Source: a virus (lineage: Duplodnaviria > Heunggongvirae > Uroviricota > Caudoviricetes). From it: 10,715 nucleotides of DNA. This document shows, one piece after another, positions 1,411 through 6,311 of this stretch (the stretch's first letter is position 1; the number at the start of each line of letters is the position of its first letter). The stretch lies in the IMG/VR virus record IMGVR_UViG_2609460059_000002; one strand, 5' to 3'. The notes below the pieces were generated by a model. The model worked only from the letters and a program-made list of their open reading frames with translations, did not search any database and had not been told where the DNA came from. Made by a program: the position numbers and the translations under genes.

Positions 1411-2335
1411 TGATTTTTGCGCCTTTATTCTGACTCACGGGCGACCGGACAAAGTTCTGACTTACCGGACGTTGCGTCGTGCTGGCTATACCGGGAAAAT
1501 TTTTATCGTTGTTGATGATGAAGATAAGACACGGCATCAGTACATGGCTGAATTTGGTGAACAGGTGCTGGTGTTTTCCAAAGCCGATATCGCCAGTCGT
1601 TTTGACGAAGCCGATAATTTCGGTGACCGCCGCTCAATTTTTTACGCCCGTAATGCCTGTTTCGACCTGGCAAAACTGGTCGGGTGTAAATACTTCATTC
1701 AGCTCGATGATGATTATCACGAGTTCCAGTTTCGGGTGGATCGCAACTATGACCAGGCCTATTTTCCGATAAGGAAACTGGATGCGATCCTTTCTGAAAT
1801 GCTGGCGTACTACGAATCAATACCTGCTCTTTCCATCGCTATGTCGCAGGGCGGGGATTTTCTTGGTGACAATGGCGGCCATGCTTCGTGGGTAAAACGC
1901 AAGGCAATGAACAGCTTTATCTGTTCGGTTGACCGACCGTTCTCATTCATGGGGCGCATTAACGAGGATGTGAATACGTACACGAATCTCGGTCGCCGTG
2001 GTGAATTGTTTATGACGATCGGTGCTGTCCAGTTAGGGCAGAAACAGACGCAGAAAAACAGCGGCGGAATGACCGAGCTGTATCTGGATTCCGGAACCTA
2101 CGTTAAAAGTTTTTACTCCGTCATGTATGCGCCGTCGTGCGTAAAAATCTCACTGATGGGAGCCAGCCATAAACGCATTCACCATCAGGTCACCTGGAAC
2201 AACGCTGCAGTAAAAATCCTTCACGAAAAATACAGGAAGAAGACACCCTGCATATCAATAGGGGTGACAAATGATTCCGTATTCGAAAGTCGAGTCTCTG
2301 GCAGCGTGCCGGATGACTGCACAACAAATCGCTGA
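1403..2335 (+). CDS. Hypothetical protein with GT-A-fold glycosyltransferase-like motifs (310 aa); candidate nucleotide-sugar transferase, possibly DNA-modifying
   Basis: ATG at 1403 is preceded by GAGGAGGAGG and overlaps the upstream stop in ATGCGTGA, indicating translational coupling. The N-terminus FILTHGRPDKVLTYRTL...KIFIVVDDED resembles the first beta-alpha-beta of GT2-type enzymes. A DXD-like motif FIQLDDDYHEF lies at nt 1706-1714. The track start at 1382 lacks an RBS. Confidence 0.55.
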   Translation: MRDDFCAFILTHGRPDKVLTYRTLRRAGYTGKIFIVVDDEDKTRHQYMAEFGEQVLVFSKADIASRFDEADNFGDRRSIFYARNACFDLAKLVGCKYFIQLDDDYHEFQFRVDRNYDQAYFPIRKLDAILSEMLAYYESIPALSIAMSQGGDFLGDNGGHASWVKRKAMNSFICSVDRPFSFMGRINEDVNTYTNLGRRGELFMTIGAVQLGQKQTQKNSGGMTELYLDSGTYVKSFYSVMYAPSCVKISLMGASHKRIHHQVTWNNAAVKILHEKYRKKTPCISIGVTNDSVFESRVSGSVPDDCTTNR

Positions 2336-2522
2336 CGTTCTGGATGTTGATCTGAACCGACTGAAAGAAAATCGGGAAGCAATGACAGATTTTTATGCGG
2401 CCATCCGTAAGGGCAGAGCGAAAGGTGAAGCCGAGTTACGGGCGGCATTGTTTAAGCTTGCCAGAAAAGGGGATGCCTTTGCTCTGCGCGAACTACTCAG
2501 GGTGGATAAAAATCAGGACTAA
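2271..2522 (+). CDS. Small (83 aa) putative helix-turn-helix DNA-binding protein immediately upstream of terS; possible packaging accessory or regulatory protein
   Basis: ATG at 2271 with GGGGTGA upstream. Contains an HTH-like segment MTAQQIADVLDVDLNRLKE followed by a basic helix. Stops at TAA 2520-2522, 3 nt before the terS ATG. Overlaps the 3' end of the upstream gene by 65 nt, so the start is uncertain (alternative ATG at 2313). Confidence 0.5.
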   Translation: MIPYSKVESLAACRMTAQQIADVLDVDLNRLKENREAMTDFYAAIRKGRAKGEAELRAALFKLARKGDAFALRELLRVDKNQD

Positions 2523-2525
2523 CTG

Positions 2526-3620
2526 ATGAGCAGACCGGACTGGGGGGCGTTGCAGCAGGAGTATATTGCTGAATACACCCGCTCCGGTATATCTCCGGTG
2601 GCATGGTGTGAAGCAAGGGGACTGAATTACGCAACAGCCCGTCGTTACATCAAAAAACCTCCGAAAAATGCGCAGACAGAAATGCGCAAAACTGCGCAAA
2701 AAAGTGCGCAGAAAAAATCTGCGCAGACTGCACAAAAGCGGAACGAAAAATCTCAGGAAAAAAAGCCAGTATTCGATGCGGGCCTGAATGAGGGCGACGC
2801 GGAGGAATTTTCGTTCTGTCCCGATGAATTCGGCATTTCTGACCAGCAGGCTAAGTTTGCGATGCTTGTTGCTCAGGGGAAAAAGCCGACAGAGGCGTAC
2901 CGACTAGCCGGTTATGAGGGGCAAGGTGCGACAGCTAACAGCAACGCCAGTCGTATGCTTAGAAATGCCAGGGTTTTTCGCGCTATCAGCTACTTCCGCA
3001 ATCAGTACCAGAAACGCTATACCGCAGACCTGGATTTACTGGTGAGTCAGTTGATGGCCATTGTCCTGGCCGACCCCAATCAGCTTGCACAATTTCGCCG
3101 TGTTAACTGCCGTTATTGCTGGGGCGAGAATCATCTCTACCAGTGGCGCGATATAGCAGAATTCGACAAGGCAGCGGCGCAGGCTTCCAGAGATGGCAAA
3201 CCCGAACCGGAATATGGAGGCCTCGGCTTTGTTGATAACGCCATACCCAATCCGGACTGCCCGAAGTGCTGCGGTGAGGGAACGGGACAGCTTTATATGG
3301 CTGATACCACTCTGCTTGATGGGGATGCGCGGCAATTATATGCAGGGGCAAAACTCGGAAAATTCGGCGTTGAGATCCTGCTGGAGGATAAGGCTGCCGC
3401 CCGGCGTGAATTGTTGCGTTTGCTTTCTGCTGGTGGGGCTTTATGTGCAGATAAGCGGCTACAGGAACTGGAAATTGAACGGCGCAGAATGGAAAACCAG
3501 AAGCTGCGCAAAGAGATCGAAACGGTGGAAGATAATGAACATCCCCAGCCTGTGGCGATCAATATTAATGTGGTTGATGCCAGAGTAAGGAGTGATGAAG
3601 ATGATCTCTCCGACGCTTAA
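2526..3620 (+). CDS. terS: Terminase small subunit (unusually long, 364 aa): N-terminal HTH, A/Q/K-rich linker, terminase-small-subunit-type DNA-binding domain, Cys4-type zinc-ribbon-like motif, C-terminal coiled coil
   Basis: The N-terminus MSRPDWGALQQEYIAEYTRSGISPVAWCEARGLNYATARRYI is HTH-like. The internal segment FCPDEFGISDQQAKFAMLVAQGKKPTEAYRLAGYEG...SRMLRNARV matches the conserved phage small-terminase domain as I recall it. Sits directly upstream of, and overlaps, the large terminase gene. Confidence 0.8.
   Translation: MSRPDWGALQQEYIAEYTRSGISPVAWCEARGLNYATARRYIKKPPKNAQTEMRKTAQKSAQKKSAQTAQKRNEKSQEKKPVFDAGLNEGDAEEFSFCPDEFGISDQQAKFAMLVAQGKKPTEAYRLAGYEGQGATANSNASRMLRNARVFRAISYFRNQYQKRYTADLDLLVSQLMAIVLADPNQLAQFRRVNCRYCWGENHLYQWRDIAEFDKAAAQASRDGKPEPEYGGLGFVDNAIPNPDCPKCCGEGTGQLYMADTTLLDGDARQLYAGAKLGKFGVEILLEDKAAARRELLRLLSAGGALCADKRLQELEIERRRMENQKLRKEIETVEDNEHPQPVAININVVDARVRSDEDDLSDA
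2669..2725 (+). repeat. Cluster of five copies of the palindromic hexamer TGCGCA spaced 10-15 bp apart inside terS (encodes the A-Q-K-rich linker); candidate pac-type recognition repeats
   Basis: TGCGCA at 2669, 2683, 2693, 2705 and 2720, each embedded in A-rich context (aaTGCGCAgac, aaTGCGCAaaa, cTGCGCAaaaa, gTGCGCAgaaa, cTGCGCAgac). Confidence 0.5.
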
Positions 3621-4902
3621 TGTGCCTCAGGCGCGATTTCTTTCAATGCCCCATAAATTTAAAGCCTATATTGCTGGTTTTGGCTCGGGCAAAACATGGG
3701 TTGGGTGTGGCGGCATATGCAAGGGGATTTGGGAGCATCCAGGTATAAATCAGGGATATTTTGCGCCAACGTATCCCCAAATTCGCGATATTTTTTACCC
3801 TACAGTGGAAGAAGTTGCTGCTGACTGGGGATTGAACGTAAAAATTAATGAGGGAAATAAAGAGGTTCACTTTTATTACGGACGCCAGTATCGGGGAACC
3901 ACTATCTGCAGATCGATGGAGAAGCCACAAACGATCGTCGGTTTCAAAATTGGTAATGCGCTGGTGGATGAACTGGACATTTTGCCGAAGGAAAAAGCCA
4001 GAACGGCGTGGCGCAAGATAATTGCGCGTATGCGTTATAAGATTGATGGACTTCGCAACGGTATTGACGTTACAACCACGCCGGAAGGATTCAAATTTGT
4101 CTACGAGCAGTTTGTTAAAGCCGTGCGTGAAAAAACAGAGCTGGCCTCACTGTATGGTCTGGTGCAGGCATCTACTTTCGATAATGAAAAGAACCTGCCA
4201 GCAGATTACATTCCTTCGCTTCTTGAATCATACCCTCCAGAGCTGATTAAAGCCTATCTTCGAGGACAGTTTACTAACCTGACAAGTGGTACTGTTTACC
4301 ATCAGTTTGACCGGAAACTGAATAATTGCGAAGAAGTGGAGCAGCCAGGGGAGCCGATTTATATTGGGATGGATTTTAACGTTGGAAAGATGGCGGGGAT
4401 CGTCCATGTGCTGCGTTTGGGGCTTCCATGTGCGGTAACTGAAATCATCAATGCCTACGATACGCCGGATATGATCCGCATCATTAAAGAACGCTTCTGG
4501 CTGTATGACGGGAATGATTACCGGAAAGTGAGGGAGATTTATATTTATCCAGATGCTTCCGGAGATTCCAGAAAATCAAGTAACGCAAGTACGACGGATA
4601 TAGCCCAGCTTAAGCAGGCTGGTTTTAACGTTGTGGTGAACAGCTCGAACCCGCCAGTAAAAGATCGCGTTAACTCAATGAATGCAATGTTCTGCAATGC
4701 CAATGGTGAGCGTCGCTATAAAGTTAATGTGAAGCGTTGTCCGGTATATGCCGAATCTCTGGAGCAACAGGTCTGGGATGATAAGGGGGAGCCTGATAAA
4801 AAATCTGGCAATGATCACCCGAATGATGCCGGAGGTTATTTCATCGTTAAGCAATTCCCTATTGTCAAACCGACCGGAAGAGTCACATCACTTCGGATTT
4901 AA
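3601..4902 (+). CDS. terL: Terminase large subunit (ATPase/nuclease)
   Basis: Walker A-like motif AGFGSGKTW near the N-terminus; size about 433 aa. TAAGGAG at 3586-3592 gives the best spacing for ATG 3601 (in-frame alternatives GTG 3592 and ATG 3595). Overlaps the terS 3' end by 20 nt. Stop TAA 4900-4902. Confidence 0.88.
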   Translation: MISPTLNVPQARFLSMPHKFKAYIAGFGSGKTWVGCGGICKGIWEHPGINQGYFAPTYPQIRDIFYPTVEEVAADWGLNVKINEGNKEVHFYYGRQYRGTTICRSMEKPQTIVGFKIGNALVDELDILPKEKARTAWRKIIARMRYKIDGLRNGIDVTTTPEGFKFVYEQFVKAVREKTELASLYGLVQASTFDNEKNLPADYIPSLLESYPPELIKAYLRGQFTNLTSGTVYHQFDRKLNNCEEVEQPGEPIYIGMDFNVGKMAGIVHVLRLGLPCAVTEIINAYDTPDMIRIIKERFWLYDGNDYRKVREIYIYPDASGDSRKSSNASTTDIAQLKQAGFNVVVNSSNPPVKDRVNSMNAMFCNANGERRYKVNVKRCPVYAESLEQQVWDDKGEPDKKSGNDHPNDAGGYFIVKQFPIVKPTGRVTSLRI

Positions 4903-4904
4903 TT

Positions 4905-6311
4905 ATGGCTGATATATCAACACCCAACCTCGACTATAACGATATGCTGGAGGCGTGGGATATTAACGACGCATTGATGGGCGGTACGCTTGAAATGCGC
5001 AGGCAGGGGGAAAATTATCTCCCCAAATGGCCTAATGAAGATGAAGACGCTTATAAAAAACGCCTGTCTGTGGCTACGCTACTTCCTGTGTATGAAGAAA
5101 GCATCAAACAAAATATTGGGCGCATATTTGCAGAGCCGACAGTATTGAGTGAGGAAACGCCGGAAAAAATCAGGGAATATGCAGAAAATATCGACATGGA
5201 GGGGAGCCGACTGGATGTGTGGGCGCAGCAATTTTTCAGTCTCGCATTTCAGTATGGTGTGGCACATGCGCTGGTGGACTATCCACGAACGGATATGAAA
5301 GAGATTCGGACAAAAGCCGATGAAAACGCGGCCGGTGGTCGCCCGTACGTTACGATGCTGAATCCACGCCAGGTTATTGGATGGAAATCGAAAGTTGAAA
5401 AAGGGAAAGTTGTTCTCACTGATTTGCGTATAAAAGAGGTCATCATTATTGATGGTGATGATTTCGGGCAGAAGAAGGTGGAGCAGATCCGCCATATTAT
5501 GCCCCGTCGAGTTGAAATTTATCGACGCAGCGAAGGTACTAATGGCGAATCTGTCTGGACGCTTCATGAGTCATGGAATACCAGCCGTGATGATATTCCT
5601 CTGGTAACACTGTATACGAAGAAAACAGGGTTTATGCGTGGTACACCGCCATTGCTTAATCTTGGCTTGCTGAATATCAAGCACTGGCAAAGCCAGAGCG
5701 AGCAGGACAATATTCTTCATGTTGCCCGCGTTCCATTGCTGGTGGCCTACGGGCTGGACAGGAATGAAGAACTGACGGTTGGTGCATCCACCGCTACGAT
5801 TTTTGAGGACAGAACAAAAAATGGCCTCGAATATGTTGAACATAGTGGCGCAGCGATAGAATCTGGCGAAACATCACTTGAGAAGCTGGAAAATCAGATG
5901 CGTCATGCCGGCGCTAAACTTCTGCGGGCTGAAAATACATCCACCAAATCTGTTGATCAGACTAATGAAGAGCGGATGCAGGAACACTCGCCGCTTTATA
6001 CAATGGCGAACTCCCTCGAAGATGCCCTCGATAATATTCTCCAGATAATGGCGGAATGGAGCGGAGAGAGTTGCGGTGGCAATGTGGATGTGCGCACTGA
6101 ACTGGATGTATCTGCCCAGGTGTTTGACTCATCCTCCGCGCTGGCTGTTCAGTCATTGCGTCAGGGCGGTGATATACGTCAGATTGATGCGGTTCGGGTG
6201 TTGCAGGCGTTGAAATTTATCGATCAGGATTCCCGTCCAGAGGAAGTGATCGATGAATTAAAAAATCAGAGTGTAATGCTGATGGAAATCAATGATGCAA
6301 ACCGTGAATGA
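4905..6311 (+). CDS. Portal protein (468 aa)
   Basis: Canonical position between the large terminase and the Mu F-like head morphogenesis gene, with typical portal size. ATG is 2 nt after the terL stop (TAATTATG). No motif-level confirmation is possible by eye. Confidence 0.7.
   Translation: MADISTPNLDYNDMLEAWDINDALMGGTLEMRRQGENYLPKWPNEDEDAYKKRLSVATLLPVYEESIKQNIGRIFAEPTVLSEETPEKIREYAENIDMEGSRLDVWAQQFFSLAFQYGVAHALVDYPRTDMKEIRTKADENAAGGRPYVTMLNPRQVIGWKSKVEKGKVVLTDLRIKEVIIIDGDDFGQKKVEQIRHIMPRRVEIYRRSEGTNGESVWTLHESWNTSRDDIPLVTLYTKKTGFMRGTPPLLNLGLLNIKHWQSQSEQDNILHVARVPLLVAYGLDRNEELTVGASTATIFEDRTKNGLEYVEHSGAAIESGETSLEKLENQMRHAGAKLLRAENTSTKSVDQTNEERMQEHSPLYTMANSLEDALDNILQIMAEWSGESCGGNVDVRTELDVSAQVFDSSSALAVQSLRQGGDIRQIDAVRVLQALKFIDQDSRPEEVIDELKNQSVMLMEINDANRE

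Follow-up and report, generated by a model that had tools for sequence, protein, structure and literature searches.

Where does an Escherichia coli prophage begin to package its DNA, and can that point be read from its sequence? The question is raised by a stretch of 10,715 nucleotides (hereafter the window) from the Caudoviricetes record IMGVR_UViG_2609460059_000002, in which the small terminase gene terS (2526-3620, plus strand) carries a dense cluster of the palindromic hexamer TGCGCA. The gene encodes a protein of 364 residues (TerS) with an N-terminal helix-turn-helix (HTH) like that of phage P1 PacA, a disordered linker, and an SF6/SPP1-type Terminase_2 core for DNA binding and oligomerisation; the cluster lies in the part that encodes the linker. 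An original prediction, made from the letters alone, had offered two explanations, a pac site comparable to that of P1 and a repeat driven by the codons of the linker. The reading proposed here, to which we assign a probability of about 0.7, is that the array is the DNA recognition part of the prophage's pac site, built in the manner of P1 but without Dam sites and in one cluster. It draws on sequence comparison and on the analogy with P1, and its bases are the selection that acts on the repeat as DNA, the tie of the repeat to the HTH module, its co-variation with HTH residue 39, and the homology of the HTH to PacA.

The hexamer array in terS

Five exact copies of TGCGCA start at 2669, 2683, 2693, 2705 and 2720 on the plus strand, and only three further copies are found in the rest of the 10.7-kb window. 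A sixth hexamer, TGCACA (2729-2734), differs by one mismatch; many close relatives have an unaltered TGCGCA there. Five exact copies and one degenerate copy stand within 66 bp of terS, at spacings of 14, 10, 12, 15 and 9 bp. The array as a whole, as delimited by Tandem Repeats Finder (2664-2737, plus strand), is A-rich (43% A) and encodes linker residues ~47-70. Five copies in 57 bp had been described as far above chance at 2669-2725, and both the coordinates and the judgement are correct: in 500 simulations under a first-order Markov model of the window, no 57-nt segment held more than three TGCGCA, and the maximum for any hexamer was four.

Four of the copies are read in one frame as an Ala-Gln dipeptide, namely copy 1 (2669-2674; aaT GCG CAg, N-A-Q), copy 3 (2693-2698; acT GCG CAa, T-A-Q), copy 4 (2705-2710; agT GCG CAg, S-A-Q) and copy 5 (2720-2725; tcT GCG CAg, S-A-Q). 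Copy 2 (2683-2688; aTG CGC Aaa) falls in a different reading frame and encodes M-R-K; in relatives its first codon is GTG or TTG, or the copy is lost (TGTGCA, TGCGTA). The description of the repeat as encoding an A-Q-K linker is therefore right for four copies and wrong for the one at 2683.

Selection at the DNA level

Synonymous codons were resampled over terS nt 121-420 with the codon usage of the window. The mean number of TGCGCA fell to 0.85 compared to the five observed, and only 6 of 20000 resamples reached five. The same procedure applied to seven homologues of the TGCGCA class and seven of a TGCGAA class gave 0.5-1.8 expected hexamers against 5-9 observed. The codons of the linker point in the same direction: over 57 distinct family sequences, the A-Q dipeptide was encoded as T|GCG|CA in 179 of 191 cases within the linker, compared to 13 of 102 elsewhere in TerS. 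This is the opposite of a linker that keeps A-Q while synonymous codons destroy the hexamer, the outcome that the original prediction had named as contrary to a DNA signal. The wobble T that precedes GCG is constant across the codons AAT, ACT, AGT and TCT, whose first two bases differ, and the counts of hexamers per reading frame (183, 27 and 14) indicate that all three frames are used.

Homologues at about 40% identity carry 4-10 copies, again in three reading frames. Klebsiella prophage TerS proteins at this distance have nine, encoding A-Q, L-R-T and C-A. Pasteurella phage Pmp11 and related phages carry the hexamer TGCGAA, for the most part in the frame that encodes Cys-Glu, and the resulting linker is NCETNCESNCET. 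The linker peptides cannot be aligned between lineages and the hexamer still persists. Selection acts on the repeat as DNA, and it is the DNA repeat that dictates the peptide and not the reverse. The array can lie within a gene because the disordered linker that it encodes tolerates the imposed residues (A-Q, M/L/V-R-K, C-A).

Two broken terS genes were also observed. In Rac-SA53 (L002, 1417-2445) a deletion that fused terS removed the HTH and left two intact hexamers, the others being one-mismatch variants; two of the four covered hexamers that are exact in the window are mutated, which at about 10% overall divergence is insignificant alone. In Photorhabdus cinerea (L331, ~1321-1410) a frameshifted terS pseudogene keeps one intact TGCGCA, compared to at least five in its relatives, and the remaining copies again differ by one mismatch. 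The decay of the array in these two genes fits maintenance that depends on function, as anecdotal evidence; several frameshifted terS copies retain their hexamers.

Co-variation of the hexamer with the upstream HTH

The region that directly precedes the array (2526-2660, plus strand) encodes the N-terminal HTH, residues 1-45, with the putative recognition helix ...T37-A38-R39-R40-Y41-I42-K43-K44, which is the proposed reader of the hexamer. Among 126 distinct sequences from phage and viral-contig collections, HTHs with the motif A-R-R-Y were accompanied by TGCGCA in 91 of 91 cases and those with A-K-R-Y by TGCGAA/TTCGCA in 34 of 34, the median count of the non-cognate hexamer being 0. When one genome per species was considered, the corresponding figures were 62 of 67 and 13 of 13. 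The TGCGAA hexamer frequently stands within a 12-bp palindrome, TGCGAATTCGCA.

Some pairs of HTHs differ at only three of 44 residues (V22I, R39K and K44I) and carry different hexamers, for example L215 and L078. The HTHs of the Pasteurellaceae, which are about 50% identical to either enterobacterial class, keep K44 and yet have K39 together with TGCGAA, so that residue 39 is the only position that tracks the hexamer perfectly. As it appears in these sequences, the R39/K39 rule is a correlation within a subfamily and no universal code.

Homology to PacA and comparison with P1 pac

Alignment of the window HTH with P1 PacA residues 1-70 by hhalign gave a probability of 93.4% (E 2.5e-7, 39 columns). 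The window N-terminus matches phrog_1711, the PacA family, with E 6e-6, and PacA in turn matches phrog_370, the family of the window N-terminus, with E 1.9e-4; the similarity found by BLASTP between the entire TerS and PacA is weak and limited to the HTH (E 0.12). These profile matches identify the window HTH as homologous to the N-terminus of PacA.

The P1 pac site occupies 161 bp inside pacA and contains seven hexamers with Dam sites, and synonymous recoding of these hexamers lowered the phage titre about 9-fold (PMC10028697). In the annotated P1 record the TGATCA/G hexamers start at pacA nt 194, 201, 213 and 228 and at nt 324, 336 and 347, the mapped pac cuts fall between the two clusters at nt 276-285, and a site for integration host factor (IHF) lies beside the cuts. 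In both systems irregularly spaced TG-NN-CA hexamers (intervals of 7-15 bp in P1 and of 9-15 bp in the window) are placed inside the small terminase gene, just behind the codons of an N-terminal HTH, and the P1 hexamers likewise occur in more than one reading frame. Klebsiella-type relatives of the window share with P1 the arrangement in two clusters, at gene nt 138-196 and 360-398 compared to 194-228 and 324-347 in P1.

The two systems also differ. The window hexamer TGCGCA lacks the Dam sequence GATC present in TGATCA/G, so that no methylation switch is expected. The remainder of TerS, an SF6/SPP1-type Terminase_2 core with a four-cysteine insertion, is unrelated to the C-terminal part of PacA, and the Terminase_6 type of the large terminase (TerL) also belongs among the differences from P1.

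The array as part of the HTH module

The array directly follows the HTH even in TerS proteins whose similarity to the window TerS is confined to the first ~45 residues, the rest being unrelated in sequence. Examples are those of Klebsiella RothC (247 residues), Pmp11 (240), Aeromonas phiARM81mr (291) and Vibrio douglas 12A4 (297). Further types that bear the array have 235, 250 and 284 residues, and the overall lengths run from 235 to 366. Comparison of these proteins assigns the array to the HTH module and not to the TerS core.

A search in the reverse direction, in which viral contigs were scanned for TGCGCA-N3-10-TGCGCA-N3-10-TGCGCA, pointed to the same association. Among the 120 matches listed, 77 had the HTH directly upstream and 2 more were cut off at the HTH, while at least four other HTH-type TerS families had the array in the equivalent position; the remainder were intergenic arrays or coding tandem repeats. 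The arrangement of an HTH followed by an array may be more general than the PacA-like family. Viral contigs L164, L181, L210 and L209 encode a different N-terminal HTH with three TGCGCA right behind it, in frames that give V/L-R-x or N-A-Q/K-C-A; two such TerS sequences read '...DYRAG..SLR.IA...ES.IRRRAK...' and '...ATAKKFGVSDNTVKKI'.

The terS segment of the window was found in 883 of 5426 complete E. coli genomes; in E. coli 042 (NC_017626), for example, terS lies at about 1,555,409. Prophages with the HTH module number in the hundreds among enterobacteria, Pasteurella, Vibrio and Aeromonas, and about 200 records of Shiga toxin (Stx)-converting phages have it as well. In the Stx phage 933W (L292, NC_000924) the TerS gene (2501-3307) encodes an HTH that is 53% identical to a consensus query built from enterobacterial relatives, with the recognition helix TARTRIKM. 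It is followed at ~2633-2680 by IDHEIDHKTDHEIDHD, that is, four YGATCAT repeats with an exact 12-bp period, each containing a Dam GATC site, and then by one or two TGCGCA, an arrangement common to the approximately 200 Stx phage records. Since the 933W repeats all lie in one reading frame, selection at the DNA level is not proven for that array.

Taken further, the HTH and its array might constitute a portable packaging-specificity cassette, in which 4-10 copies of a hexamer are read by the HTH and which, in Enterobacterales, Pasteurellaceae, Vibrionaceae and Aeromonadaceae, passes from one TerS core to another that is unrelated. Its code would have Arg39 reading TGCG-C-A and Lys39 reading TGCG-A-A, while in Shiga-toxin phages, 933W among them, the homologous HTH is followed by a variant that contains GATC. 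We put this wider proposal forward tentatively, at slightly less than even odds. If it is true, pac specificity and the DNA transduced would be predictable from the sequence and could be reprogrammed by a single residue together with recoding of the array.

Two other repeats of this type were encountered outside terS. In L190 (2952-2979), TTTGCGCA/TTTACGCA repeats lie inside the gene of a replication-type HTH protein and resemble iterons, as in lambda O and ori. The high-GC viral contig L093 contains a promoter-like intergenic unit, TATGCGCAT...CTTGCGCAA...GCTTGCGCATC-TATAAT, which occurs twice (4593-4626 and 5463-5496), 870 bp apart, and has the look of operators or iterons of the TGCGCA type that have no connection with terS.

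Proposed role in packaging and alternative explanations

In the mechanism that we propose, the N-terminal HTHs (residues 1-45, recognition helix ...TARRYIKK) of several subunits of a TerS oligomer would each bind one hexamer, and TerS would thereby assemble on phage concatemers. Spacers rich in A-tracts (43% A) may help the DNA to wrap or bend. TerS on the array would position TerL (3592-4902), presumably both nuclease and motor, for a first cut nearby, and this initiating cut would lead to headful packaging; where the cut would fall and which way packaging would run are likewise part of the proposal. The pac site originally suggested by analogy with P1 has gained strong comparative support, including the homology of the HTH to PacA, and it is the packaging role itself that we infer.

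Several observations weigh against a pac site. Among close relatives the hexamer columns show no clear advantage in conservation over the spacers (pairwise diversity 0.068 compared to 0.086), and single copies are freely deleted or lost by substitution (copy 2 to TGTGCA or TGCGTA, copy 4 to TGCGCG, copy 6 to TGCACA); every close relative keeps at least four hexamers, and the copies therefore look redundant. The window has one cluster of 5-6 copies, whereas P1 has two (4 and 3) that flank the cut. One-mismatch hexamers in the window (64 observed, 72 expected) form no second, P1-like cluster downstream. P1 has GATC within its hexamers and an IHF site beside its cuts; in the window GATC is absent from 2500-3000, and the IHF consensus WATCAANNNNTTR has no match on either strand at 2300-3300, in a consensus scan that leaves room for a weak site. 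With one cluster, no GATC and no IHF consensus, the window thus fails to show several P1-specific features. P1 PacA also has A-R-R-Y and yet its hexamer is TGATCA, which means that residue 39 alone does not set the specificity, and the R/K switch may go back to only one or a few independent changes in evolution. Nor is the HTH always accompanied by a TGCGCA array, since four A-R-R-Y TerS of Alteromonadales lack one within 1.2 kb. The literature searched contained no mapped packaging termini and no data on binding by TerS, on cleavage or from genetics, either for this phage or for other members of its family, and the starts of the GenBank and IMG/VR records, taken as a proxy for packaging termini, do not lie at the array and look conventional or arbitrary in position.

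The Alteromonadales exceptions to the rule linking HTH and hexamer come from Colwellia, Shewanella, Parashewanella and Psychrosphaera (L301, L348, L366 and L374). In L374, four AAGTTAAA repeats follow the HTH in place of TGCGCA.

The same evidence must be weighed against other functions of the array. TerS might bind it through the HTH for the regulation of terS and terL, or for the storage or nucleation of TerS, with pac located elsewhere; the evidence for a partnership of HTH and array would suit any role that requires TerS to bind, the array is located within the transcription unit of terS and terL, and the single cluster in the window shows no obvious cut region. We nevertheless regard this as unlikely, given that the sole homologous arrangement studied experimentally, P1 PacA with its hexamers, is a pac site, that known pac sites (P22, SPP1, P1) typically lie in or beside terS, and that no sigma-70-like promoter is found in 2200-3000; it is the P1 precedent that makes a role of the autoregulatory type less likely. 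An explanation that dispenses with DNA recognition altogether would have selection act on a flexible linker rich in A, Q and K that arose by tandem duplication, the hexamers being merely inherited codons. Four of the five copies do encode A-Q in a segment rich in K, Q and A, Tandem Repeats Finder reports a 36-nt repeat of about two copies, and Gln and Lys codons account for the base preferences at the flanks (a purine at +1, an A-rich left side). What it leaves unaccounted for is that out-of-frame copies in the window and its homologues encode M/L/V-R-K/T, C-A and C-E, that the wobble T is kept across four different codons, that resampling expects less than one copy, that A-Q outside the linker comes without the hexamer, and that the hexamer persists in linkers that cannot be aligned; the chance that it is correct is in our estimate minimal. 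The codon-driven linker repeat of the original prediction was accordingly rejected, on account of the excess over the synonymous expectation and thus over what the protein requires, the use of all three frames, and the change of the hexamer together with the residue of the upstream HTH.

Palindromic copies could also pair with each other, forming hairpins in the mRNA that affect translation or stability, cruciforms, or terminators of antisense transcription. The RNA of the array (plus strand) folds at -31.7 kcal/mol (z = -5.4), other arrays of the TGCGCA class give z values of -3.3 to -4.2, and the minus strand has four terminator-like hairpins with T-runs at 2669-2736, compared to 1.1 expected. 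Arrays of non-palindromic hexamers in direct orientation show no such excess (Pmp11 -0.6 and +0.2, Yersinia -0.8, P1 -1.6); because these arrays are unstructured and yet obey the same rule of position and HTH, the structure is a by-product of palindromy and not a conserved trait, and structure as the function of the array appears very improbable. The minus-strand hairpins are probably a by-product of the same kind, but they could block antisense transcription. An equally slight probability is given to the array being a recombination junction or a hitch-hiking repeat, that is, a boundary at which HTHs are shuffled onto TerS cores, with no function in binding. The segment with HTH and array is much less diverse among relatives than downstream terS (0.02-0.09 compared to 0.15-0.18), the matches of Rac-SA53 and Actinobacillus pPE4 start at query positions 408 and 550, within the array or beyond it, and thus place mosaic boundaries nearby, and whole copies are gained and lost. 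Recombination leaves unexplained, however, why the identity of the hexamer tracks HTH residue 39, why 4-10 exact copies persist across linkers that cannot be aligned, and why there is a functional counterpart in P1 pac; the repeats are more likely to give rise to recombination than to exist for it.

Comparison with other packaging systems

If the array is read as the recognition part of a pac site, its nearest parallels besides P1 are found in SPP1/SF6 and P22. SPP1 TerS, whose pac site comprises pacL, pacC and pacR, also binds repeated boxes; they lie where its own gene region begins, in DNA that is bendable and rich in A-tracts. The window TerS core belongs to the same Terminase_2 family as SPP1/SF6 G1P, which differs in having no additional PacA-like N-terminal HTH and boxes that are not TGCGCA hexamers; moreover, the array studied here follows the additional HTH even where the Terminase_2 core is absent. 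In P22, an enterobacterial headful phage, the pac recognition sequence lies within the coding sequence of the small terminase, gene 3 (PMC11260489). The predicted recognition sequence of the window is likewise embedded in the small terminase gene, whereas the P22 site is single, asymmetric and about 22 bp long, with no hexamer array and with a TerS of another fold family and another mode of recognition. A more remote analogy is offered by lambda O, a DNA-binding protein whose gene itself contains the repeated binding sites (the ori iterons), in the stretch that codes for the linker and adjacent to A-rich DNA. The likeness is one of arrangement only, since O acts in the initiation of replication, is an unrelated protein and binds longer iterons.

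Novelty and significance

That the pac site of P1 is built from hexamers is textbook knowledge. In the literature searched (pac, terS, PacA, Stx phage, Yersinia phage) no description of the TGCGCA/TGCGAA array or of its family was found. As far as this literature extends, the fusion of a PacA-type HTH to SF6/SPP1-type and other TerS cores, the non-Dam hexamers TGCGCA and TGCGAA, the R39/K39 correlation, and the wide distribution of the module, including the GATC-containing variant after the 933W HTH, appear to be new.

Pac sites have been defined experimentally in only a handful of phages. One that could be read from the sequence would predict the start of packaging and the lateral or generalised transduction of these prophages, and it would explain the odd composition of the TerS linker. 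If the pac reading is true, the pairing of R39/K39 with C/A at hexamer position 5 would also offer a natural specificity switch for studying how small terminases read DNA.

TerS and neighbouring genes

The assignment of TerS as a small terminase subunit is based on matches to Pfam Terminase_2 (PF03592; residues 122-321, 35.1 bits, cutoff 26.1) and, over its full length, to phrog_51 'terminase small subunit' (E 1.7e-76), and its GenBank relatives carry the same annotation. A profile search of the PDB gave SF6 TerS 3zqp (E 5.6e-9) as well as 4zc3 and 2cmp. An AlphaFold model, built from a shallow alignment, was confident for two HTH regions only. Residues 1-45 form three helices with a predicted local distance difference test (pLDDT) score of 73-82, the linker (residues 49-94) scores below 50, and the second DNA-binding domain, an HTH of the SF6/SPP1 G1P type (residues ~99-160; 2820-3005, plus strand) at the start of the Terminase_2 core, scores 77-90 and is the region of the 3zqp, 4zc3 and 2cmp profile matches; the core beyond residue 160 was modelled poorly. 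The placement of the linker between two DNA-binding domains of TerS, as originally proposed, is borne out by these two confident HTHs, the second of which matches the SF6 domain by profile. A Foldseek search of the PDB returned no significant match, the top one being the SF6 DNA-binding domain with E ~1. Four cysteines (C195, C198, C245 and C248) in CRYCWG...CPKCCG motifs at residues 195-248 (3108-3272) are invariant in 23 of 23 aligned homologues, and this stretch is likely a zinc-ribbon insertion inside the Terminase_2 core, in a part where the structure model is poor.

The large terminase gene terL (3592-4902, plus strand) overlaps the end of terS by 29 nt and matches Pfam Terminase_6N (E 3.7e-33) and Terminase_6C (E 5.8e-11). 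TerL is 43-52% identical to that of Kagunavirus and Jersey-like siphoviruses, and a sequence search of the PDB gave no match to it. Beyond terL lie a DUF4055 portal gene and then a gene for a MuF-like head protein, and the combination of a Terminase_6N/6C TerL, a DUF4055 portal and a MuF-like protein is a gene set like that of known headful phages. Near-identical DNA occurs in Rac-like E. coli prophages with trkG and ydaW/ydaY-type genes.

Directly upstream of terS, at 2271-2522, an open reading frame for 83 residues matches another small terminase family, phrog_309, with E 8e-23 over an inner portion of the profile (positions 145-218 of 319). Its product may be a further small protein that binds DNA or resembles TerS. 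The array does not require this gene, because the Klebsiella and PHB10 relatives keep the array with no forward-strand gene immediately upstream of terS. Between the lysis/trkG region and terS, a ParB_N-domain protein (619-1410; phrog_620) is encoded, and a protein resembling TET-associated glycosyltransferases (1382-2335; Pfam TAGT, E 6.8e-36; phrog_842) is likewise encoded upstream of terS. The window showed no gene of the TET/JBP type, and none is annotated in the related phage record. The two proteins may form a pair for DNA modification or DNA handling beside the packaging genes.

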